A stretch of 64,000 nucleotides of DNA, taken from contig NC_135894.1 in the NCBI RefSeq assembly GCF_964194155.1, forward strand, positions 56,172,001 to 56,236,000, read 5' to 3'. The notes under the pieces were generated by a model. It was not told where the DNA came from. It did no database searches and saw only the letters and a program-made list of their open reading frames with translations. Made by a program: the position numbers and the translations under genes. Shown piece after piece: positions 2,573 to 53,410 of the stretch. The stretch comes from Cetorhinus maximus (taxonomy: Eukaryota). Numbering within the stretch: the first letter of the stretch is position 1; the number at the start of each line of letters is the position of its first letter.

Positions 2573-4365
2573 CTATATTAAATGTAGTTTTGTACTTTCA
2601 TTAGTATAATTCAGCCTGTGCTGTTATTACTATATAAATATTTTAAGCAATTACAATAGTATATGGGAAAAGATACAAAATCCCTTTATCCCATAATCAT
2701 ACTGTGAGGCCCTGCATTTACCAGAAAATGCCAAGGAGTTGTTCCATTGGAGGCTGTTAGTTTTTCATGTATATCACTGCAGGAGTTTGCCAAGTGGCAT
2801 GATTCATTAAATCATTAATTCTGCAGAATGAAGCACTTAACACTTTCCATTCCAGGGATGCACTGCCAGGATCAAGCACTCCTCTTTTAGCTATGAAATG
2901 GGTGTAAGTACTTTACTGTCTTTTTATTCTCACCTGTGATCCTTCTTGATCACAACCCCAGAAATATTCTCCCTCCTACAGCGTAGCATTTTTATACTTG
3001 TATACTTATTTCCCACACTCATCCTCAAGTGAAACTGCTAACCAATACTATATTAAAATGAAACAGTTTTGTCCTTTGGGCACACTTATTTCTCTGAACT
3101 CGTTTCATGTACAACCCAATCAGGGAACTCTAACAAACATCAGTCAGGGTGTGATTTGATACCTGCCCTACTCATCAGTAACACATTTTACTCAGGAGTC
3201 CTTCAGTGGGTGTCAGGCCCCAAATTAAGGGACTAAATTCCTGGCTAAGGCAGCCACTTGGACACCAAATAAAATGAGCTCCACAAACTGAGTAGTGGAT
3301 CCAACACATGCATGGATTGGGTGCAGGCCACAACATTGATGAATTTGAATGCTTTATGCCCATTTTACAGACAAAAAGAGGGTGGAAGGCATGCTAATTT
3401 GATCCCCTTAACTCTTATTCACTTCTGTCTTTTCATATTAAAGACATTTTAATGAACAATTGGGGATCCACTGTTAATACTTTAAAAAGCAATAGCAGAA
3501 TAATATATTTTAATATCAATAGTAAATTAGTTTCCAAAATATTTTTAACTCCATTTGTCTGACTCTGTACCTTTGCTAAATTGAATTACACCACCTTTTC
3601 CCTGCTATTTCGAATTGTTGCACTTAAAAGTGCTCATCGTATAAGGCATTATACAGATGTCACCACAGACATTGCGGGCACTCATACAAAGTGAAATAGG
3701 TGAAAGATTGATTGACTATTCTATATCATTCTTCCAGTTCTGTCAGAAATCTGGTTAAATCATTGTGGCAAACAGTTGAAAGGATATTATCACCTGTCAC
3801 ATCACATTGCAAAGAAAAAAATATATTTGTACGATTCATTTAACATCCAAGTCAATATCCCAGTTAAAAACCAGAATTCAAGGGTATTTCTATAGTCACT
3901 GCAGAACAACCTTTGTATATTTGTATGGGAAATAACTCTTCAGTGGAATGTGACCTACAGTTGGAATAATGAAGCAATTTATTGTGTTCACGAGCATTGT
4001 AAGTAAATGAAACTCCACCGTAGATTGGTGCTATCTGCTTTCTGTCACCAATTTTCATTTATAAATCCCCAGATTTTTCTCGGTTAGTGGATCAGTAAAA
4101 ATTTAATGTTGCAAAAAGACAAGTGAAGGGCTGGGGAATCATATCCCCACCTGCCCTGGCAGAAACCGGGCAGATGGACAGTTAAAATTAGGTGAGTTAC
4201 TTACACACCCCTGAGCCACCAGGGTAAAGAAGAGTTCTGCTTTTCACCTGTCGCCCTGAGCAGGCAGCAAGGACACTTGGCCAGAGTCAGCAGTTGTGCT
4301 GTGAAATGAAGCAACTAACAATTAATCTCCAAGCCTCATCTAACATGGTTTTTGCCAAGTCTACC

Positions 4366-5072
4366 TCATGGGATCTGGGTATTGTTGGCATGGTCAGAAT
4401 TTGTTGCCTGTAATTGATCTTGAACTGGATAGGCAGTTAAGAGCCTGTGGGTCTGGAGTCACTTGTAGGCAAGACCTGGTAAGGAGGACAGACTTCCTTA
4501 GTTATTAGAATGATCGACCTAAACAGAGTTGGTGTATTTGTGCCCTTGGAGATGGTGTGTTTGGCCAGTTCCCCTGGCAGCATGAGACGAACAGCACTCT
4601 GGATCTCCCTGGCTAAGATGGTGTGCCGCTTGTTGTCATGAATGAGGTGTGAGGCCTAGGAGGCGATGCACTTGAAAATGTCGATAATGAGTGAGTTCAT
4701 AACACTTATGGCCTTAGGCGAGATCGTGGACCTGGGTGGGTCAGCACCCTGTACACGTAAGTGAAATAGCTCTGCTTGTGAGATTTCCTCTGCTTCTTGG
4801 GCCACTTCTTGGTGACTTTAGTCAGTGACTGCTTCAATGCCTTGCACCACCCTTAGCTGCAGCTGCCACCTCAGTCACTTCCTTAGTTATTAGTGGATCA
4901 GACAGGTTTTTATAACAATCACTTATAGTTGCCATGATCATCATTACTGAGACAAGCTTTATACTCCAGACTTATTAATTGAATTTAAATTCTACCAGGT
5001 GGGATTTGAACCCTTGCCCCCAGAGCATTAGTATGGGCCTCTGGATTACTAGCCCAGTTTTACCACTACTCC
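4366..5072 (-). mobile_element. tRNA-derived SINE, split by the H2B retrocopy
   Basis: Head near 5070-4990 (GGGCTAGTAATCCAGAGGCCC..GGGTTCAAATCCCACC). The body and tail match the copies at 5883, 44500 and 56680. Confidence 0.8.
4509..4876 (-). pseudogene. H2B: Histone H2B processed pseudogene (divergent variant) with 17-bp TSD
   Basis: Minus-strand translation: [105 protein letters not shown]. It is flanked by ACTTCCTTAGTTATTAG at 4492-4508 and 4877-4893 and carries frameshifts and a premature stop. Confidence 0.92.
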
Positions 5073-5882
5073 ACCATCCCCCCAATTGAAGGCGGAAGAT
5101 GTTGCTACTGTTACATTCCCAAATCACACTACTGTAAAAGTCTTTTATAGGGCTGTGTGAGTCAGCTCCCATAAAAGTCAGATATTCAGACCACTTACAG
5201 GAGTGGCGAAAGGCTTCAACTTGATCTAATGCAGATCCTACTATGTAAATAGCTACTTTCTAGATACACTTTGATTCTCAATACTTTGCAGTGCACAGTC
5301 CCGTCACAAATACTATAAATATATTTTGTTATCAAAATAGGTTGACAGTAATTTCTGATCATAGGAACTTGTATCGGATCACACTTATACCCTTTAATAC
5401 TATATCTTATTTTATTCAATCACAGGACGTTGACTTTTCTGGCAAAGGCAGCTTTTCTTGCCCATCTCTATTTTTACTGATGTACAAAATACAAACAGAA
5501 TTTACAGTATTTCTCTGAATTTACTTGGTCTAATTTTTGCCCCGGATTTTTCTCCTGTTTTCCACGCCTCAAAATGGAAACGGAAAAGCACCCAAAACAA
5601 TGCGTTTAGAAACTAAAGTAATTTTTTTATTGCCAAAGTGCCTTATGTGTGTTTCATCCTGAAATTCAGGAGTAACTTCAATCTCATGAACAAAGCAAGT
5701 GAAATTTCCTTTCCTGTTATACAATTATTTTTGTAACTAGCCCACCTTCCAAGCTAGGATTAATCTGGCCAAAAAGAAGGCCAAGTGTTTTTGAACCAAA
5801 ACAAATGACATGCTTGGTTGGATTCAAACAGGAGATAAACAAGACCTGTTCCCAGTTGCCTCACCTCCCCTTAACTCTTCTT

Positions 5883-10005: not shown

Positions 10006-13000
10006 AATACCAAGTGATACTGAACTGTGCAAGATAAAATATTGCCCCAAAACTTATAAGCATTTTAGGAGCTTAAGGTGGTTCATTAATGATTCCTATG
10101 ATGCTGGCACATACTTCACTCACAGAAGTCAAGCCTTAGTTTCATTTTAAAGATGAAAATTGTTACTGGGGGAATGGCCCACACCATACCACATAGGTGG
10201 AGAGAAACAATTGGAGAGAAATAGGGATGTTGAGGAGAACAGAAAGATCCTAACAAAATGATGATCCCAGGAGAGAAAGATGCAAGATTGAAGAGGAGAG
10301 AGTAACAGTAACATAGTTGGCAGGGGGAGGTGAGGAGAGGCAACCCTTAAAATGAATGTTACTGAAACTGACATTATCGACAAATAAATAATCATAATGA
10401 AACTCTGATTACTTTGCACTGATTATATGTAACAATGATAGCGGGAAGTTGGAGAGAAATTTGATCTGAACTATCACTGCCTTTCATCCTTCAAATACAT
10501 AATGTTGTCAGTTGATGCTATTGCTTAGAGATTGGTAATGTTTCCGAGGAACCTTTCAACTCGCATATTGATAGTGAATATCACACTTTGTACTCTGTAA
10601 ATGTCAGCTGCTTTTGACAAATACTCTTTTATGTGTTTCTTTTGCATGCTTCGTTATGTTTTTGGTGTGTACCTGACCAGCAATATGATCTGGAAAATAA
10701 GTTTTAATGCTGTAGAAAGGCATGGTCAAGTAATTCCAATCCCTACATAGGCAGAGTGTAACCTAGCAAAAAGGTGCAGCATAATTCTTCAGCTGGTTGC
10801 TTTGTTAGCTGACTGTAAGTCTAAACCATGAAGTAGTGTAAGTGATGTTCAAACATTTTAGAATTTTGATATCAGAAATTAGATTAATTAATTCTGATTG
10901 ACAGGGTCTCTTCTGTCATTAGGAAGATGTGTCAGTGGACCCAAGTGATTTGATTCTAATTGTAGCACATTTCCAAATATTTGGAGCTTCTCATTAAATT
11001 AGATGCCTGCATAAATTAACAGTGCTGTAATTCCATTTAGCGCACGATCCAAAACACAAATTAACTTACACAATTGCACAATCACACACATGCAAGACTG
11101 TTTCAAAATAGAGAATGTAAGACAGCTCTTTGTGATTTGGCTGTAGATGTTCACCAGATGTTAATGATTACTTTCGCTGTCCCTGCTTTTCTTGAATTTG
11201 TATCTATCACCATATTTATCTCTCTGCCTCCTGTCGGTGTTCTTGGTCTGTCTGATCATTTTAATAGAGGCAGTGTCCTTGTGTATACTCAATTCCTGGA
11301 ACAGAACAGATGCATACTTTGGACAGTTTGTGCTGCAATTTAATTGTTCTGCACAACTGTTTTTAACTTAATATTGATTACCTCCAGCATGTGTAGTGTA
11401 TTGGTGATATTAACAAACATCACATGGATAGCATTATAGAGTCATAGAGGTCTACAGCACAGAAAAAGGCCCTCTGGCCCATTGAGCCTGCGCTGGTCAA
11501 ACAAGTACCTAACTATTCTAATCCCATTTTCCAGCACTAGGCCCATAGCCTTGTATGCCATGGCATCACAAGTGCACATCCAAATACTTCTTAAGTATTT
11601 GGTTTCTGCTTCTACTGCCCTTTCAGGCAGTGAGTTCCAGATTCCCGCCACCCTCTCGGTGAAAAAATTCTTCCTCACATCCCCTCTAAACCTCCTGCCC
11701 CTTATCTTAAATCTATGCCCCCTGGTTATTGATCCCTCCACCAGGGGGAAAAGTTCCTTCCTGTCTGCCCTATCTATGCCCCTCATAATTTTATAGACCT
11801 CAATCATGTCCCCCCTCAATCTCCTCTGCCTCAGGGAAAATAACGCCCCTCTATCCAATCTCTCCTCATAACTAAAACTCTCCAGCCCAGGCAACATCCT
11901 GGTAAATCTCGTCTGCACTCTCTCTAGTGCAATCACATCTTTCCTATAATGTGGATTCCAGAACTGCACGCAATACTCCAGCTGTGGCCTAACCTGCGTT
12001 TTATACAGTTCCAGCATAGCCTCCCTGCTCTTATATTCTATGCCTCGGCTAATAAAAGCAAGTATCCCATATGCCTTCTTAACCACCTTATCTACCTGTC
12101 CCGCTACCTTAAGGGACCGGTGGACATGCACACCAAGATCCCTCTTATCCTTAGTACTTCCCAGGGTCCTACCATTCATCGTGTATTCCCGTGCCTTGTT
12201 TGTCCTGCCCAAGTGCATCACCTTACACTTATACGGATTAAATTCCATTTGCCACTGATCAGCCCAGCTATACCCTCATGTAATCTGAAGCTATCCTCCT
12301 CACTATTTACCACCACACCAATTTTGGTGTCATCCGCAAACTTACTGATCAACCCTCCTACATTCAAGTCTAAATCGTTTATATATACCACAAACAGCAA
12401 GGGACCTAACATCGATCCCTGTGGAACCCCACTGGACATAGGCATCCAGTCACAAAAACACCCCTCGACCATCACCCTCTACTTCCTGCCAGTCACCAAT
12501 TCTGGGTCCAATTTGCCAAATTGCCTTGGATCCCATGGGCTCTTACCTTCGTTATCAGTCTCCCGTGCGGGACCTTATAAAAAGCCTTGCTGAAGTCCAA
12601 GTAGACTACGTCAAATGCATTACCCTCATCTATACACCTGGTCACCTCTTCGAAAAATTTTTCAGACATGACCTCCCCTTAACAAAACCATGCTGACTGT
12701 CCTTGATTAATCCCTGCCTCTCCAAATGTAGATTAATTCTGTCCCTTGGAATTGCTTCCAATAGTTTGCCCATCACTGAGATTAGACTGACTGGCCTGTA
12801 GTTCCCTGGTTTATCCCTTCCTCCCTCCTTGAATAACTGTACCACATTGGCTGTCCTCCAGTACTCTGGCACCTCTCCTGTGGCCAGAGAGGTGTTGAAA
12901 ATTATTCCCAGCACCACTGCTATCCCCTCGCTTGCCTCACTCAACAGCCTGTGATATATTTCATCCGGGCCCAGAGATTTCTATACTTTTAAGCCTGCCA

Positions 13001-15651
13001 GACCACTTTGAACCTCCTCCCTTTCTATGCTAATTTATTTAATTATATCACAGTCCTTCTGCCTGATCTCCATACCCATGTCATCGCTCTCAGCTGTGAA
13101 CACCATCTCAAAGTATTCATTTAGAACCCCACCTACGTCTTCCGGCTCCACACACAAATTACCACTATGGTCCTTAATGGGCCCTACACTTTCCCTAGTT
13201 ATCCTCTTACTCTTAATGTATTTGTAAAATAACTTTGGCAGGTAAAATAAAGGCAAATCCAATGTTTTTTCATGCCCCCTTTTTGCTCTCCTAATTTCCT
13301 TTCTAAGTTTCCCCCCTACACATTCTATACTCCTCTAGGGTTTCCGCTGTTTTTAGCCCTCGGTATCTGCCACAAGCCTCCCTTTTTCTCTTTATCCAAT
13401 CCTGTGTATCCCTCAACATCTAAGATTCCCTGGATTTGTTGGTGCCACCCTTTATCTTTACTGGAATATGTTGGCCCTGTACTCTCAATATTTCCTTCTT
13501 GAATGAGTCCCACTGCACTGACAAAGATTTACCTAAAAGTAGCTGCTCCCAAATTATACCTAATCTTATGAAAATCGGCCTTCCCCCAATTTAGAACTCT
13601 GATTTCTGGCCCATCCTTGTTCTTTTCCATAACAACCTTGAATCTAATGGAGTTATGATCACTATCTGCAAAATGTACCCTCACTGATACCTCTACCACT
13701 TGCCTGGCATCATTCCCTAAAATTAAGTCCAGGACCAACCCCTCCCTTGTAGGACCTTCTACGTACTGGCTTAAAAAGCTCTCTGGAATGCATTTTAAGA
13801 ATTCCGCTCCCTCTAAACCTATCACACTATGACTAACCCAGTTAATGCTGAGAAAGTTGAAATTCCCCACTATTACTACCCTATTATTTTTACACTCCTC
13901 TGAAATTTGCCTACATATCTGCTCTTCTATTTCCCTCTGACTGTTTGGGGGCCTAAGGTACACTCCCAGCAATCTGATTGCTCCTTTTTTGTTTTTCAGT
14001 TTTATCCATATGACTTCATTTGAGGAGCCATTTAAGATGTCATCCCTCCTTACTGCTGTAATTGATTCATTGATCAATATTGCGATACCCCCTCCTCTTT
14101 TACCTCCTTCCCTGTCTCGCCTGAAGACCCTGTAATCCTGGAATATTGAGCTGCCAATCCTGCCCCTGTCTCAACCATGTCTCTGTGACGGCAATGACAT
14201 CATACTTACATGTGTTAATTTGTGCCTTCAACTCATCTGCCTTATTTGTCAGACTCCTTGCATTAAAATAAATACCATCCAACTTTGCCAAACTCCCTTG
14301 TGCCTTGACTGACCTATAATTTCTATGCCTTCCACACTCACTTGTCCTCTCTTCTAATTTTGGTATGCAGCACCCCTTGCTGAACCTCCTCTCAGGATCC
14401 GCTGCCAAGTTAATTTAAACCCTCCCCAACATTACCAGCGAACCTCCCCGCAAGGATGTTGGTCCTATTCCAGTTCAGGAGCAACCCGTCCGCCTTGTAC
14501 AGGTCCCACCGCCCCCAGAAACGGTCCCAATGTCCCAGAAATCTAAAGCCCTCCCTCCTGCACCATCTCTCCAGCCACATATTCATCTCGACTAACATCC
14601 TATTTCTATACTCACTAGCACATGGCACTGGAAGTAATCCAGAGATTACTACCTTTGAGATCCTGTTTTTTAATCTGCTTCAGAGCTCCCTAAATTCTAC
14701 TTGCAGGACCTCATCCTTCTTTCTACCTATGTCGTTGGTACCAATATGTGCCACGATCTTTGTCTGTTTGCCCTCCCCCTTTAGAATGCCCACCCGTTCA
14801 GTGACATCTTTGACCCTGGCACCAGGGAGACAACGTACCATCCTGGGGGTCATGTCTTCAGCCGCAGAAACGCCTGTCTGTTCCCCTTACTATCAAGTCT
14901 CCTACCGTTATTGCTCTTCCCTCTTTCCTCCCCCCCCTGCGCAGCTGAGCCACTCATAGTGCAATGAGCGTGGCTGCACTCCTAAGAGGAACCTTCACTC
15001 TTACTGTTTTCCAACACAGAAAAACGATTCTCGAGCAAGATGCACCCTGGGGATTTCCTGACTACCTGCCTAACACCTTTCTTCTGACTGATGGCCACCC
15101 ATTCCCTCTCTGTCTGCACTTTCATAAACTGTGGGGTAACCATGTCTAAAAATGTGCTATCCACGAAACTTTCAGCCTCGCGGATGCACCTCAGTGCCTC
15201 CAGCTGCCGCTCAAGCTCCAAAACACGGAGCTCAAATAGCGGCAACTGGTGGCACTTCCTGTACACATGGTCGGTCAGAGCGCAAGGAGCATCTAGGACT
15301 TCCCACATGTTGCAGGCGGTACATAATACGGGACTGAGCTGCTCTGCCATGCCTCTAGTTGAAAAAAAAACCCTTACTTTAAGTTAAATACAGTAAAAAA
15401 AAGTTAAATTATTTATGTACTTTAAATAAAAGTTAGAACTCTTACCTTTCATAGCTTAATCTATTTTAAACTGGAGAAAAACACTTACCCATGACTCACC
15501 AATCAGCTCTCACCTTTGTGCTGACGTCACTTTTTGAAGCTGCCCCACACTCACGCTGGTTCTGATCTCTCCGCCGCTCTCTCGTGCTGTCTTGTGATGT
15601 CACTTGTGTTATTTTCAACAAGAACTGACTGCAGGACACTCTTCCCAGACT

Positions 15652-17437
15652 TTTGTTTTGGAAAAATATACTATATTCATAAAATATCTGAAAGAACATT
15701 ACAAAACGTTTCTAAATGGCCATCACAAAAAGTGCAATCAGATTCAACTTTTACACATGGTTCACGAGGTGCTTCAATACAATGACTAAATATTACAGTC
15801 ATTTCAATATGGTTATTACAGACAGTCAGACAGTGTGATGGTATTGGAGTTATCTACATACATCATGATGCACTCTGAGGTGCTTCAATACAATTATAAT
15901 ACAATTAGTGTTCACGCATACATTCAATGTGAGTCGTACAGCCAGAGGGGTCTACACAATTCCCAGCCCCTCAGTGCACTATGGCAGAAAGGTCTTAGAC
16001 AGCAACCTTTCCCCATTGTGCCTTTGCAGCGGCTGCCCCAAGCTTTAGTGCATCTCTCAACATGTAGACCTGGACCTTGGAATGTGCCAGTCTGCAACAC
16101 TCGGTCAGGGACAATTCTTTGCGCTGGAAGACCAACAAATTTCGGGCAGACCAAAGAGCGCCTTTCACTGAGTTGATGATCCTCCAGCTGCAGTTGATGT
16201 TTGTCTCGGAGTGTGTCCCTGGGAACAGCCCGTAGAGCACAGAGTCCTGTGTCACAGAACTGCTCGGGATGAACCTCGACCAAAACTACTGACTACTGCA
16301 TCTCTCTCCAAGCCTTCTTTGCAAAGGCACATTCCACAAGGAGGTGAACAACGGTCTCTTCCCTACCACAGCCACCTCAAGGCAACGTGCAGAGGGGGTG
16401 AGACTCCTGGCATGTAGGAAAGATCTGAGAGGGAGGGCCTTTCTCACCACCAGCCAAGCTACATCTTGGTGCTTGTTGGAAAGTTCTGGCGATGAGGCAT
16501 TCTGCCAAATGACTTTGACAGTCTGCTCGGGGAACCATCCGACAGGATCCACCATCTCCTTTTCCTGCAGGGCCTCTAGGACGTTACGTGCCGACCACTG
16601 CCTGACGGACTTGTGGTCAAAGGTGTATTTCTGCATAAATCTTTCCACGAGGGACAGGTGGTACGGCACAGTCCAACTACTTGGAGTGTTCCGCGGCAGC
16701 GTGGCCAGACCCATCCTTTGCAACACCGGGGACAGGTAGAACCTCAACACGTAGTGACACTTGGTGTTTGCATACTGAGGGTCTATGCACCGCTTGATGC
16801 AGCCACACACAAAGGTGGCCATCAGGATGAGGGCGACATTGGGCACGTTTTTCCCCCCTTTATCTAAAGGCTTGTTCATCGCGTCCCTGCGAACACCACC
16901 CATTTTCGACCTCCAGATAAAGCAAAAGATGGCTCGGGTATTCGCCATCACGCAGGAATGAGGAATAGGAAAGACCTGTGCTACATACAGCAACACCAAG
17001 AGTGCCTCACCCCTGATGACCAGGATCTTATCTGTAATGGAGAGGGAGCATCGCTCCCACATGCCCAGTTTTCTTTCCACCATAGCCATTTGCTCCTTCC
17101 AGTTTCTAATGCATGCCTCGGTCCCTCCGAACCATATCCCCAGCACCTTCAGGCAGTCTGACCTGACGGTGGAGGACAAAGGATTGGATAGCCCAGTTCC
17201 CAAAGAATATGGCCTTGCTCTCATTATTATTATTATCTCATTATTATTGCTTTAATGTTCTAAGTCATAGGTGAAATAATTCCTGCTGCTAATCGCTGGC
17301 TCATGAGGCCAGTTCGACCTGGTTGCAGATGTTGATCAGTCTGTGCACTGACAGCGGATCTGAGCAGAAGATGGCAACATCGTCCATCATCCAGGGAAGC
17401 ATTGACCTGAGTGCCTCCATTGCCTGGGATCGTCTCA
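15652..17437 (-). mobile_element. 5'-truncated L1-Tx1 non-LTR retrotransposon
   Basis: RT C-terminal half: TIPGNGGTQVNASL..MDDVAIFCSD, LKVLGIWFGG, KGGKNVPNV, WLVVRKALP, ALWSARN..WGK. A-rich 3' end at 15652. 16-bp TSD ACACTCT(T/C)CCCAGACT at 15636-15651 and 17438-17453. Confidence 0.92.
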
Positions 17438-23108: not shown

Positions 23109-23297
23109 NNNNNNNNNNNNNNNNNNNNNNNNNNNNNNNNNNNNNNNNNNNNNNNNNNNNNNNNNNNNNNNNNNNNNNNNNNNNNNNNNNNNNNNNNNNN
23201 NNNNNNNNNNNNNNNNNNNNNNNNNNNNNNNNNNNNNNNNNNNNNNNNNNNNNNNNNNNNNNNNNNNNNNNNNNNNNNNNNNNNNNNNNNNNNNNNN
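23109..23297. other. Assembly gap (189 N)
   Basis: Run of n characters. Confidence 1.
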
Positions 23298-30207: not shown

Positions 30208-30490
30208 TTCTTGTTGAAAATAACAAGATCGACATCACAAGTCAGCGCAAGAGAGCGGTGGAGAGATCAGAACCAGTGTGAGTGCGAGGAAGCTTCAAAA
30301 AGTGACGTCAGCACAAAAGTGAGAGCTGATTGGTGAGTAGTGGGTCAGTGTTTTTCTCCAGTTTTTTTCTCCAGTTTAAAATAGATTAAGCTAAGGAAAG
30401 GTAAGAGTTCTAGTTTTTATTTAAAGTATGTAAATAATTTAATTTCTACTATATTTAACTTAAAGTAAGGGTTTTATTTCAACTGGAGGC

Positions 30491-31516
30491 ACGGTAGGGC
30501 AGCTCAGACCCATGTTATGTACTGCCTGCAACATGTGGGAAGCCCAAGGCGCTCCTTGTGCTCTGACTGATCACGTGTGCAGGAAGTGCCACCAGCTGCA
30601 GCTACTTGAGCTCCGAGTTTCGGAGCTTGAGCGGCAGCTGGAGGTAATGAGGTGCATCCACAAGACTGAGAGTTTCATGGACAGCATGTTTTTAGACATG
30701 GTCACCACACAGCTTACGGAAGTGCAGACAGAGAGGGAATGGGTGACGATCAGTCAGAAGAAAGGTGTCAGGCAGGTAGTCAGGAAATTCTCAGGGTGCA
30801 TCTCGCTTGAGAACCATTTTTCTCTGTTGGAAAATGGTGAGAGTGACGGTTCCTCTGGGGAGTGCAGCCACGCTCATTGCACTGTGAGTGGCTTAGCTGA
30901 ACATGGGCGGAGGAAAAAGAGGGGAAGGTCAATAGTAGTAGGAGACTCAATAGTAAGAGGAACAGATAGGCGTTTCTGCACCAGGATGGCGCCAGACTCC
31001 AGGATGGTATGTTGCCTCCCTGGTGCCAGGGTCAAGGATGTCACTGAATGGCTTCAGGGCATTCTAAAGGGGGAGGGCAAACTGACAGAGGTCATTGGTA
31101 CCAATATGTACCACGATATAGGTAGAAAGTGGGATGAGGTCCTACAAGCAGAATTTAGGGAGCTAGGAAACAGATTAAAAAACAGGACCTCAAAGGTAGT
31201 AATCTCTGGATTACTTATGGTGCCATGCGCTAATGAGTATAGCAATAGGAGGTTAGTCAAGATGAATGTGTGGCTGGACAGATGGTGCAGGAGGGAGGGT
31301 TTTAGATTTCTGGGACATTGGGACCGTTTCTGGGGATGGTGGGACCTGTACAAGGCAGATGGGTTGCACCTGAACTGGAATGGGACCAACATCCTTGTGG
31401 GGGGGTTTGCTCATGGTTTTGGGGAGGGTTTAAACAAACTTGGCAGGCAATGGGATCCTGAGAGGAGGTTCAGCAGGGAGAGATGCACAGCCAAAATTAG
31501 AAGAGAGAGCAAGTGA
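30491..31516 (+). pseudogene. CR1 ORF1 (zinc finger/leucine-rich region plus SGNH esterase domain)
   Basis: CTACNMW..CRKC, IVVGDSIVRG, CLPGARVKD, GTN, DGLHLN. The start ATG of copy A corresponds to ACG at 30491 here. Confidence 0.85.
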
Positions 31517-34500
31517 GTCTGAAAGGCAGATAAATTATAGGTCAGTTAAGGCACAAGGGAGTTTGGCAAGGTTGGATGGTATTTATTTTAATGCAAGGAG
31601 TCTGATGAATAAGGCAGATGTGAGTATGATGTCATTGCTGTCACAGAGACATGGTTGAGAGGGGGGCAGGATTGGCAGCTCAATATTCCAGGATATAGAG
31701 TCTTCAGGCAAGAAAGGGAAGGAGGTAAAAGAGGAGGGGATATTGCAATATTGATCAGGGAATCAATTACAGCGGTAAGGTGGGATGATATCTTAGAAGG
31801 CTCCTCAAATGAAGCCATATGGGTAGAACTGAAAAACAAAAAAGAAGCAATCACATTGCTGGGAGTATACTATAGGCCCCCAAACTGTCAGAGAAATAGA
31901 AGAGCAGATATGGAGGCAAATTTCAGAGAAGTGTAAAAATAATAGGGTTGTAATAGAGGGGGATTTCAACTTCGCCAACATTAACTGGGTTAGTCAGAGT
32001 GTGATAGGCTTAGAGGGAGTGGAATTCTTAAAATGCATCCAGTGGAGTTTTTTAAGCCAGTACGTAGAAGGTCCAACAAGAGCGGGGGCGATCCTGGACT
32101 TAATTTTAGGGAATGAAGCTGGGCAAGTGGTAGAGGTATCAGTGGGAGAGCATTTTGCAGATAGTGATCATAACTCGATTAGATTCAAGGTTGTTATGGA
32201 AAAGGACGAGGATGGACCAGAAATCAGAGTTCTAAATTGGGGGAAAGCTGATTTTAATAAGATCAGGTATGATTTGGCCAGAGTGGACTGGGAGCAGCTA
32301 CTTTTAGGTAAATCTGCGTCAGAGCAGTGGGACTCATTTGAGAAGGAAATAGTGAGAGTACAAGGCCAACATATTCCAGTAAAGATAAAGGGTGGTACCA
32401 TCAAATCCAGGGAACCCTGGATGTCGAGGGATAGACAGGATTGGAAAAAGAGTAAAAAGGAGGCTTATGGCAGATACCGAGGGCTCAAACAGTGGAAGCC
32501 CAAAAAGATTACAGAATGTGTAGGGGGGAACTTAAAAAGGAAATCAGGAGAGCAAAAAGGGGGCATGAAAAAACATTGGCAGGTAAAATAAAGGAAAATC
32601 CAAAGTTATTTTACAAGTACATTAAGAGTAAGAGGATAACTAGGGAAAAAGTAGGTCCCATTAAGGACCATAGTGGTAATTTGTGTGTGGAGCCAGGAGA
32701 TGTAGGTTGGATTCTAAATGAATACTTTGTGTTGGTGTTAACAAGTGAGAGGGATGACATGGCTATGGAAATCAGGCAGAAGGACTGTGATATAATTAAA
32801 GAAATTAGCGTAGAAAGGGAGGAGGTTCAAAGTGGTCTGGCAGGCTTAAAAGTAGATAAATCTCCAGGCCCAGATGAAATGTATCCCAGGCTGTTGAGTG
32901 AGGCAAGGGAGGAGGTAGCAAGGGCGCTGGCAATAATTTGCAATACCTCTCTGGCCACAGGAGAGGTACCAGAGGACTGGAGGGCAGCCAATGTGCTACC
33001 GTTATTCAAGAAGGGAGGAAGGGATAAACCAGAGAACGACATGCCAGTCAGTCTAACCTCAGTGATGGGGAAACTATTGGAAGCAATTCTGAAGGACAGA
33101 ATTAATCTACATTTGGAGAGCAGGGATTAATCAAGGGCAGTCAGCATGGTTTTGTTAAGGGGAGGTCATGTCTGACTAATCTGATTGAATTTTTCAAAGA
33201 GGTAACCAGGTGTGTAGATGAGGGCAATGCATTTGACATAGTCTACTTGGACTTCAGAAAGGCTTTTGATAAGGTCCTGCATGGGAGACTGATAACGAAG
33301 ACAAGAGCTCATGGGATCCAAGGCAATTTGGCAAATTGGATCCAGAATTGGCTGAGTGGCAGGAAGCAGAGGGTGATGGTCGAGCGGTGTTTTTGTGACT
33401 GGGTACCTGTATCCAGTGGGGTTCCACAGGGATCGGTGTTGGGTCCCTTGCTGTTTGTGGTATATATAAACGATTTAGACTTGAATGTAGAAGGGTTGAT
33501 CAGTAAGTTCGCGGATGACACAAAAATTGGTGGGGTGGTACGTAGTGAGGAGGATAGCCTTAGATTACAGGAGGATATAGATGGGCTGGTCAGATGGGCT
33601 GATCAGTGGCAAATGGAATTTAATCCGGATAAGTGTGAGGTGATGCACTTGGGCAGGACAAACAAGGCACGGGAATACACGATGAATGGTAGGACCCTGG
33701 GAATACCGAGGATCAGAGGGACCTTGGTATGCACGTTGCCAGTCCCTTAAGGTAGCGGGACAGGTAGACAAGGAGGTTAAGAAGGCATATGGGATACTTT
33801 CCTTTATTAACCAAGGCAAAGAATATAAGAGAGAGGAGTTTACGCCGGAACGGTGTAAAATGCTGGTTAGGCCACAGCTAGAGTATTGCGTGCAGTTCTG
33901 GAATCCACATTATAGGAAGGATGTGATTGCACTAGAGAGAGTGCAGAGGAGATTTACCAGGATGCTGCCTTGTCTGGAGAGTTTTAGTTATGAGGAGAGA
34001 TTGGATAGACTGGGGTTATTTTCCTTGGAGCAAAGGAGATTGAGGGGGGACATGATTGAGGTGTATAAAATTATGAGGGGTAGACAGGAAGGAACTTTTC
34101 CCCTTGGTGGAGGGATCAATAAACAGGGGGCATAGATATAAGGTAAAGGGAAGGAGGTTTAGAGGGGATGTGAAGAAGAATTTTTTCACCGAGAGGGTGG
34201 CAAGAATTTGGAACTCACTGCCTGAAAGGGTGGTAGAGGCAGAAACCCTCATAACATTTAAGAAGTGTTTGGATGTGCACTTGCGATGCCATGGCATACA
34301 AGGCTATGGGCCTCATACTGGAAAATGATATTATGAGATTAATAGTTAGGTACTTGTTTGACCAGTGCAGACTCAATGGGCCGAAAGGCCTTTTTCTGTG
34401 CTGTAGGCCTTTTTCACTCTAATTTAATTTGGATTACTACTATAATAAATTTGTCCTATTTTTGAATAGAAATTGAAAAGGTATTTCAAAAGACATAGTT

Positions 34501-50780: not shown

Positions 50781-53410
50781 ATAGAGTCATAGAGGTCTAC
50801 AGCACAGAAAAAGGCTCTTCGGCCCATTGCATCTGCGCCGGTCAAACAAGTACCTAACTATTCTAATCCCATTTTCCAGCACTAGACTATAGCCTTGTAT
50901 GCCATGGCATCGCAAGTGCACATCCAAATACTACTTAAATGTTATGAGGGTTTCTACCTCTACCACCCTTTCAGGCAGTGAGTTCCAGATTCTCGCCACC
51001 CTCTCAGTGAAAAAATTCTTCCTCACATCCCCTCTAAACCTCCTGCCCCTTACCTTAAATCTATGCCCCCTGGTTATTGATCCCTACACCAAGGGGAAAA
51101 ATTCCTTCCTGTCTATCCTATCTATGCCCTTCATACTTTTATACACCTCAATCATGTCCCCCCTCAATCTCCTCTGCTCCAGGGAAAATAACCCCAGTCT
51201 ATCCAATCTCTCCTCATAACTAAAACTCTCCAGCCCAGGCAACATCCTGGTAAATGTCCCCTGCACTCTCTCTCTATTGCAATTTCACCCTTCTTATAAT
51301 GTGGTTTCCAGAATTGCATGCAATACTCTAGCTGTGGTCTAACCAGCGTTTTATACAGTTCCAGGATAATCTCCCTGCTCTTATATTCTTTGCCTCGGCT
51401 AGTAAAGGCAAGTATCCCATATGCCTTCTTAACCACCTTGTCTAGCTGTCCCGCTCACTTAAGGGACCGGTGGACATGCACACCAAGATCCCTCTGATCC
51501 TCGGTACTTCCCAGGGTCCTACCATTCATCGCGTATTCCCGTGCCTTGTTTGTCTTGCCCAAGTGCCTCACCTAACACTTATCCAGATTAAATTCCATTT
51601 GCCACTGATCAGCCCATCTAACTAGCCAGTCTATATCCTCCTGTAATCTAAGGCTATCCTCCTCACTATTTACCACGCCACCAATTTTCATGCCATGCGT
51701 GAACTTACTGATCAACTCTCCTACATTCAAGTCTAAATTATTTATATATACCACAAACAGCAAGGGACCCAACACCGATCCCTGTGGAACCCCACTGGAC
51801 ACAGGCATCCAGTCACAAAAGCACCCCTCGACCATCACCCTCTGCTTCCTGCCACTCAGCCAATTGTGGATCCAATTTGCCAAATTGCCTTGGATCCCAT
51901 GGGCTCTTGTCTTCATTATCAGTCTCCCATGCAGGACCTTATCAAAAGCCTTGCTGAAGTCCAAGTAGACTACGTCAAATGCATTGCCATCATCTACACA
52001 CCTGGTCACCTCTTCGAAAAATTCAATCAAATTGTTCAGACATGACCTCCCCTTAACAAAACCATGCTGACTGTCCTTGATTAATTCATGCCTCTCCAAG
52101 TGTAGATTAATTCTGTCCCTCAGAATTGCTTCCAATAGTTTCCCCACCACTAAAGTTAGACTGACTGGCATCTAGTTCTCTGGTTTATCCCTTCCTCCCT
52201 TCTTGAATAACGGTACCACACTGGCTGTCCTCCAGTCCTCCGGCACTTATCCTGTGGCCAGAGAGGTATTGAAAATTATTGCCAGCAATCCTGCTATCTC
52301 CTCCCTTGCCTCACTCAACAGCCTGGGATACATTTCATCCGTGCCTGGAGATTTAACTACTTTTAAGCCTGCCAGACCACTTAGAAACTCCTCCCTTTCT
52401 ATGCTAATTTCTTTCATTATATCACAGTCCTTCTGCCTGATTTCCATACCCATGTCGTCCCTCTCACTTGTGAATGCCGACACAAAGTATTCGTTTAGAA
52501 CCCTACCTACATCTTCCGGCTCCACACACAAATTACCACTATGGTCCTTAATGGGCCCTACTCTTTCCCTAGTTATCCTCTTACTCTTAATGTATTTGTA
52601 AAATAACTTTGGATTTTCCTTTATTTTACCTGCCAATGTTTTTTCATGCCCCCTTTTTGCTCTCCTAATTTCCTTTTTAAGTTTCCCCCTACACATTCTA
52701 TACTCCTCTAGGGCTTCCACTGTTTTGAGCCCTCGGTATCTGCCATAAGCCTCCCTTTTTCTCGTTATCCAATCCTGTATATACGTTGACATCCAGGGTT
52801 TCTTGGATTTGTTGGTGCCACCCTTTATCTTTACTGGAATATGTTGGCCCTGTACTCTCTCTATTTCCTTCTTGAATGAGTCCCACTGCTCTGACGCAGA
52901 TTTACCTAAAAGTAGCTGCTCCCAGTCCACTCTGGCCAAATCATATCTGATCTTATTAAAATTGACCTTCTCCCAATTTAGAACTCTGATTTCTGGCCCA
53001 TCCTTTTCCTTTTCCATAACAGCCTTGAATCTAGTGGAGTTATGATCACTATCTGCAAAATACTCTACCACTTGCCCAGCTTCATTCCCTAAAATTAAGT
53101 CCAGGACCACCCCCTGTCTTGTAGACCTTCTACGTACTGGTTTAAAAAGCTCTCCTGGATGCATTTTAAGAATTCCGCTCCCTCTAAACCTATCACACTA
53201 TGGCTTGTGGGGAAGTTGAAATCCCCCACTATTGCTACTCTATTATTTTTACACATCTCTGAAATATGCCTACAAACCTGTTCTTCTATTTTTCTCTGAC
53301 TGTTTGGGGGCCTATAGTACACTCCCAGAAATGTGATTGCTCCTTTTTTGTTTTTACGTTCTACCCATGTGGCTTCATTTGAGAAGTCTTCTAAGATGTC
53401 ATCCCTCCTT
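50781..53410 (-). mobile_element. 5'-truncated CR1 LINE (same subfamily as copies A and B)
   Basis: ORF2 fragments 53490-51084 with QHGF, DFSKAFD, VPQGSVLGP and RPQLEY; (CTCTATGA) tail. Confidence 0.95.

Follow-up and report, generated by a model that had tools for sequence, protein, structure and literature searches.

The 64,000-nucleotide stretch of DNA analysed here (hereafter the window) carries, within a SINE, a coding sequence for a divergent histone H2B that is flanked by two copies of the same 17 bp and is followed by neither a poly(A) tail nor a histone stem-loop. This raises the question of whether a histone message was copied back into the genome and, if so, from which gene and by which machinery. 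We propose that the insert is very probably a decayed, tailless processed pseudogene, one of a family that derives from a single source gene on contig C22 of the genome searched (G000).

The H2B insert and the interrupted SINE

An exact 17-bp repeat lies at 4492-4508 and 4877-4893; it occurs only twice in the window and in none of 100 shuffles. Between the two repeats, an insert of 368 bp (4509-4876) can be read as H2B in three minus-strand frames. When the insert and one repeat are excised, the rejoined flanks run without interruption along two further SINE copies found in the window; the one departure is a 7-bp deletion in the duplicated site. The exact duplication around a 368-bp H2B insert in a SINE, on which the original prediction was built, is thus borne out. 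The left portion of the split SINE (4340-4508, outer end approximate) can be aligned with the SINE copies around 44.5-44.9 kb and 56.6-57.1 kb, and the right portion (4877-5075, outer end also approximate) to SINE copies elsewhere in the window. We take this element to be an HE1-like shark SINE. Both repeat copies of the target site carry the 7-bp SINE deletion (4500-4503), which must therefore have predated or accompanied the H2B insertion.

The copy starts at base 2-3 of the ATG: position 4877, the first base of the forward-strand target-site duplication (TSD) at its 5′ end (4877-4893), doubles as the T of this codon. It stops 10 nt past the stop codon (4519-4521), or 14 nt when counting positions 4505-4508 of the forward-strand TSD at its 3′ end (4492-4508), four bases that also match the 3′ UTR of the family and constitute a 4-nt microhomology. 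A start at the G of the ATG and an end about 10 nt past the stop codon had been correctly read. No 5′ UTR accompanies the copy, no poly(A) follows it and the window yields no histone stem-loop with Rfam, in agreement with what had been noted.

The coding sequence (4519-4876, minus strand) is broken. Relative to the family consensus, it shows a 7-nt deletion at 4846/4845, a 4-nt insertion at 4738-4741, an 11-nt deletion at 4726/4725 and a 13-nt deletion at 4541/4540. The N-terminal tail and the C-terminal end quoted in the original prediction are both present, but in different frames, these four indels having gone unmentioned. As the frame is broken, the pseudogene had been missed by the track of open reading frames. 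The copy belongs to the oldest of the three subfamilies described below, with which it agrees at 25 of 26 diagnostic sites, and it departs from the consensus of this subfamily at 17/312 non-CpG and 22/57 CpG sites. The window also contains long broken reading frames of LINE type at 11445-14170 (minus strand), 30464-33747 (plus strand), 51575-53197 (minus strand) and 16289-17251 (minus strand), presumably three CR1/L2-like and one L1/Tx1-like, as well as 189 N at 23109-23297.

The source gene and its dispersed copies

A DNA search of G000 (3.99 Gb) gave 1085 candidates. All of the 40 that were scored are matches, the 39 other than the window copy matching at 79-84% and being spread over many contigs. 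Exact 24-nt 3′ motifs are found at 113 and 67 loci, and a 32-nt motif, with 3 mismatches at most, at 457 loci versus 0 for the control; this last number is a lower bound, which counts in the source gene as well as a few segmental duplicates. The dispersed histone-derived family that had been anticipated thus exists, with at least 457 loci, but it is made of processed pseudogenes of one gene and is not a self-propagating retroposon.

A protein search of G000 returned 1831 candidates, 150 of which were scored. The intact parent gene that had been sought is located at 2.81 Mb on C22 (G000:C22:2810875-2811261), as an intronless frame of 128 codons. Upstream lie CCAAT, octamer-like and TATA boxes, names that we assign from established knowledge, and downstream an A-rich tract, a histone stem-loop (Rfam Histone3, 34.9 bits for a threshold of 34) and a purine-rich element. 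It is the only locus where the 3′ UTR of the family is followed by a stem-loop (one exact pattern match). The gene stands in a 59.5-kb cluster (G000:C22:2781000-2840499, L131-L136) that comprises seven stem-loops, four or five H1-like genes, H2A, H3 and three divergent H2Bs. Without intron, with a 3′ stem-loop and within a histone cluster, it has the structure of a replication-dependent histone gene. Its A-tract is now interrupted in the AT-rich priming stretch (L134:777-790), unlike young copies. The second H2B variant of the cluster has orthologues in sharks, skates and sawfish.

We examined in detail 118 distinct loci, the source gene and 117 other copies. Most copies begin at a common start, 25-31 nt upstream of the ATG and about 25-30 nt below the TATA box of the source, whose Pol II promoter boxes sit upstream of the copied unit. 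The whole coding sequence is spanned by 22/30 old and 24/30 young or middle copies (46/60, motif-selected). At the other end, 114 of the 117 copies stop between +14 and +42 after the stop codon, with a pile-up at +19 to +21; the stem of the source begins at +41, and the AT-rich stretch of about 40 nt that separates stop codon and stem-loop folds unpaired. Searched to a distance of 150 nt from the stop codon, a stem-loop is present at 1/118 loci, which is the source gene, and in 0/117 other copies. The A-runs at the ends of copies other than that of the window are short (0-10) and match the source-encoded tract. Indeed, young copies reach the base of the stem and include the gene's own interrupted A-tract, which argues that their A-runs are encoded and not added. 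Added poly(A) or oligo(U) tails were considered and rejected, the runs being short and mostly encoded or due to slippage at the T/A boundary. Contigs from four runs of two other organisms, with no tissue or library record, yield decayed copies with a family-like 5′ end and CpG-type changes, none of which spans the stem-loop.

A TSD score of at least 9 was obtained for 21/35 young, 7/15 middle and 11/67 old copies (39/117), versus 1/464 mismatched pairs. Once one duplicate and one tandem-repeat case were dropped, 37 TSDs remain, of 9-19 bp with a mode of 14. They are directly preceded by TT, as for mammalian L1, in 1/37 cases and by C in 24/37. A clear TSD is lacking in 56/67 old copies, and some copies look blunt or have target bases deleted; routes of insertion other than the TSD-forming one may contribute to the family. 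The sequence flanking most copies is unrelated. The picture to be feared for a retroposed origin, in which other copies would lack TSDs and lie in segmental duplications, therefore did not materialise, and the TSDs and transcript-shaped ends uphold that origin.

Segmental duplicates do occur. On C32, one young retrocopy (L121-L124, G000:C32, 14.4-20.4 Mb) sits head-to-head with a degenerate H3 of the canonical histone cluster, immediately upstream of it; retrocopy and H3 have been duplicated together at least four times, and the open frame is kept in two. On C24 and C317 (L125-L129), at least five and probably eight segmental duplicates of one retrocopy lie within a LINE-like repeat. A full and a partial H2B retrocopy form a head-to-tail tandem at L108 (G000:C15:56238517-56239211). 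The copies of the C32 histone cluster and the C24 group were rejected as source genes, since they lack a promoter and a stem-loop of their own and correspond to retrocopies that were duplicated.

Among the protein hits listed, orthologues of the source protein come exclusively from sharks and one ray: Scyliorhinus, Mustelus, Heterodontus, Hemiscyllium, Chiloscyllium, Stegostoma, Rhincodon, Heptranchias, Pristiophorus and the sawfish Pristis. In a tree of 30 rows, in which the named mammalian variants do not figure, they form a clade (support 100/99) that is separate from canonical H2B and from the two other cluster variants. Relative to human and shark canonical H2B, the changes K43R, K46T, G53R, I61V, R79H, A81I and L101M are fixed in 13/13 orthologues, none of the 13 retains E35 or D51, and the final lysine is lost (residue numbers are taken to be those of human H2B). 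The unusual residues are thus common to intact orthologues, which led us to reject the private decay of a canonical H2B; the copies, for their part, number in the hundreds and not one or two. The claim of a lineage-specific variant as source stands as regards the distinct clade and the existence of the gene; as to lineage, however, the variant is conserved and elasmobranch-wide, and its large expansion alone looks lamniform. Among the best 120 of 7977 protein hits, 59 are H2B-annotated records of two lamniform species, 43 of which show the old, decaying sequence type; pseudogenes thus probably inflate the histone gene counts of both genomes. Other species have one or two records each among these 120 hits. 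The names of the annotated records are generic ("H2B-like"). A literature search, mostly without subscription papers, yielded no description of the shark H2B variant or of the retrocopy family. The variant is probably expressed in the germline or early embryo and apparently unnamed; as the copies are heritable, a germline or early-embryo transcript of the source is implied.

Old, middle and young subfamilies differ from their own consensus by 4.8%, 2.9% and 1.4%, respectively, at non-CpG sites. Their three consensuses are nested and in frame, and the series ends at the present source gene: the subfamilies record the evolution of this gene. From the old consensus to the source, 6 amino-acid and 12 silent codon changes are counted over about 273 and 111 sites, and from the young consensus 7 changes, all silent. 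At the level of its sequence, the source gene is under purifying selection. The copies decay neutrally or nearly so, with a pN/pS of 0.90 in 30 motif-selected old copies (5/22 frames open) and of 0.71 in motif-selected young and middle copies (18/24 frames open). Other pN/pS values (0.72, 0.54 and 0.38) were set aside as biased by protein-based locus selection and by changes in the source lineage. A record named from both Cetorhinus maximus and Carcharodon carcharias has exactly the sequence of the source protein, and the old type accounts for 29 of 39 Carcharodon records; the old wave would thus predate the split of these two lineages. No copy is more than 98% identical to the source gene. 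Copying from this gene may have slowed.

Copying of the transcript and its possible mobiliser

We suggest that the non-polyadenylated mRNA of the source would be abundant in germ cells or early embryos, that an L1/Tx1-clade LINE would nick the target DNA, and that the nicked strand would anneal to a few bases within the AT-rich stretch, where it would prime reverse transcription. With priming before the stem-loop, the latter would be left out of the copies. In the window, four SINE bases would have paired with the mRNA 11-14 nt past the stop codon. The tail-less or internal priming that had been put forward agrees well with the 114/117 copies whose 3′ ends precede the stem-loop. Internal priming of the full mRNA is the likely route, although sequence alone does not separate it from the copying of a 3′-trimmed mRNA.

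The two neighbouring H2B variants provide a comparison. They have left about 8 and 16 dispersed copies among 40 scored hits each, mostly ending before the stem-loops, so that tailless copying is general for the C22 cluster. For the second neighbour, whose stem is at +37, 9/9 examined copies end between +27 and +40, and six have TSDs of 9-16 bp. One copy of a neighbour variant keeps its stem-loop (L199, G000:C12:124486837-124487327). The source gene has 30- to 55-fold more copies than these two variants, and our guess would be that this excess is due to transcript level or timing. Mimicry of a LINE 3′ terminus by the H2B 3′ UTR was rejected, the likeness seen by eye being equalled by 14-32% of shuffles.

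Several other origins were weighed against internal priming of the C22 transcript. The template could have been a decay intermediate of the same mRNA, 3′-trimmed or briefly adenylated or uridylated, that had lost its stem-loop. Histone-mRNA decay stalls behind the terminating ribosome, near +19 to +21, where the 3′ ends pile up, and a few copies carry terminal T- or A-runs; yet young copies hold the interrupted A-tract of the source up to the base of the stem, and 3′ ends are scattered over +14 to +42 and usually overlap the start of the TSD. Truncated templates were moreover unsupported in human, in the accessible part of the report on tailless retropseudogenes (PMC5322556), and we regard such a template as rather unlikely. 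A self-propagating, SINE-like retroposon born from H2B, in which copies would beget copies, would account for the hundreds of copies, their common ends, the subfamily structure and the excess over the neighbour variants. However, among the 118 loci (of at least 457), the nested in-frame consensuses lead to one source through mostly silent changes, the sequence that young copies possess up to the stem exists only in that source, and the copies start at its 5′ end without a promoter, which renders this origin very improbable. Still less credit can be given to DNA-level duplication or templated repair, with a 17-bp repeat arising from break repair. Segmental duplicates of one insertion exist, as seen for the four on C32 and the at least five on C24 and C317, and blunt, microhomology-type junctions occur, but the flanks of most copies are unrelated, the boundaries are transcript-shaped and exclude both promoter and stem-loop, TSDs are far above the null and chimeras of RNA origin are present.

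These chimeric retrocopies lie at L040:1923-2041 (minus strand), L219:1640-1746 (minus strand) and L046. They include 5S rRNA joined to a family H2B copy within one TSD and a full U6 joined to a neighbour H2B-variant copy, and the partner of another family copy is, we assume, an RPL36A-like (ribosomal-protein-like) retrocopy. The U6, 5S rRNA and ribosomal-protein-like chimeras are template-switch products. Such chimeras are typical of L1-type reverse transcription, according to the accessible part of PMC4494074.

Insertion sites give circumstantial evidence for a LINE as well. A family of 210-bp solo LTRs (TG..CA, 5-bp TSD, 355 motif sites; L042, L043, L046, L144, L155, L185, L040 and L264-L275) holds at its TATA site 6/118 H2B copies (a seventh by eye), some with TSDs, versus an expectation well under 0.01 even with tenfold more sites. 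The same site receives the 3′ end of a LINE in 2/12 LTRs (a third by eye) and other retrocopies too. In a second LTR-like family, the corresponding site holds L048, L049, L072 and L082. The LINE family (L265:1-1500, L276-L295; 4487 candidates) is tail-less, with no poly(A), and forms tandem insertions. Its ends are followed in 14/20 cases by one of two recurring target repeats (12 and 2), and the same repeats hold the H2B copies L020, L054, L193 and L102. Pfam gives no match on the LINE fragment itself; the closest database relative has RVT_1 and zf-RVT matches below the curated cut-offs, and its Atlas neighbours are of L1-ORF2 type. The label "Tx1" is our assumption from a C-terminal sequence pattern. 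About 10/118 copies are at sites shared with this LINE; the SINE site of the window is not among these.

The likeliest mobiliser, in our reasonable though guarded opinion, is thus a family of L1/Tx1 type in this genome, tail-less and target-preferring, or older relatives of it. Mobilisation by a CR1/L2-type LINE, or by the LTR element itself, seems improbable to us. CR1/L2-like frames are, as we classify them, common in the window, blunt junctions fit CR1/L2, and six copies lie inside one LTR family; against this, the TSDs are of 9-19 bp with a mode of 14, a U6 chimera exists, targets are shared with the L1/Tx1-type family, and the copies found in LTRs, of which some have TSDs, are at the TATA site of single LTRs, which is an insertion site of the LINE too.

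Significance and comparison with known systems

Tailless retroposition of histone mRNA is already known in human. What is new is the lineage, the source gene, the scale reached from this one gene and the use of the same insertion sites by the copies and a tail-less LINE of L1/Tx1 type. Our analysis brings to light a conserved shark and ray H2B variant with fixed histone-fold changes, and adds cartilaginous fish to the lineages where histone mRNA is retroposed independently of poly(A), with more copies, and more complete ones, than in human. The retrocopies also hint, indirectly, at germline transcription of the source and of its two neighbour H2B variants, the C22 cluster being a candidate germline histone cluster. 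Furthermore, with hundreds of dated insertions, the past of one gene is preserved as in a fossil record, and lamniform phylogeny gains a set of presence/absence markers.

Going further, and tentatively, it is conceivable that sharks and rays possess a germline cluster, as yet undescribed, of histone variants with stem-loops, one H2B mRNA of which would have been in lamniforms the favoured long-term passenger of a tail-less, site-seeking Tx1-type LINE. Cartilaginous fish would then be the third lineage of vertebrates in which retroposition is relaxed and poly(A)-independent, a near-full-length non-polyadenylated mRNA having in their case been copied hundreds of times. With 18/24 frames open and a pN/pS of 0.71, some young copies could possibly have been kept as retrogenes.

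The closest parallel is provided by the human tailless retropseudogenes of histone origin. In the accessible part of PMC5322556, 51 were found from all the histone mRNAs screened, all 5′-truncated and none 5′-complete, and tailless forms were found solely in therians and the anole; sharks are not mentioned in the text or the six supplements, as far as these are accessible. As in those cases, the shark copies derive from a cellular RNA, here too a histone mRNA, lack an oligo(A) tail, end in a single-stranded A-rich region and show TSDs with a few bases of target complementarity. They differ by arising in at least 457 instances from one gene, by spanning the whole coding sequence in 46/60 motif-selected copies and by a target that is not TT/AAAA. 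Of five features tested, four were found: an identifiable source, a defined single-stranded 3′ end, the absence of added oligo(A) and a TSD with complementarity. For the fifth, relaxed machinery of L1 type, the targets shared with an L1/Tx1-type LINE and the U6 chimera are in favour, but TT precedes the TSD in only 1/37 cases.

H2B.K and H2B.N, according to the accessible part of PMC8857922, are mammalian germline variants with introns, whose retrocopies were used as evidence of germline expression. The shark gene resembles them as an H2B variant with dispersed retroposed duplicates. Unlike them, it has a stem-loop, lies within a histone cluster and has orthologues seen only in sharks and a ray; being intronless, it is neither H2B.K nor H2B.N.

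The crocodilian SINEU and target-preferring Tx1 elements, as described in the accessible part of PMC4494074, likewise consist of RNA-derived inserts that prefer a site in another repeat, with tandem insertions and both TSDs and target truncations. SINEU, however, has poly(A) tails, propagates itself and is found up to 90% in one target, whereas about 10/118 shark copies are in shared targets and all derive from one protein-coding gene; with one master gene, the shark family is not a SINE. Finally, the source itself is comparable to replication-dependent H2B genes, by the absence of introns, its CCAAT, octamer-like and TATA boxes, its 3′ stem-loop and its location in a histone cluster, and it is set apart from the canonical ones by seven fixed residues of the histone fold (13/13 orthologues) and by the loss of the last lysine.
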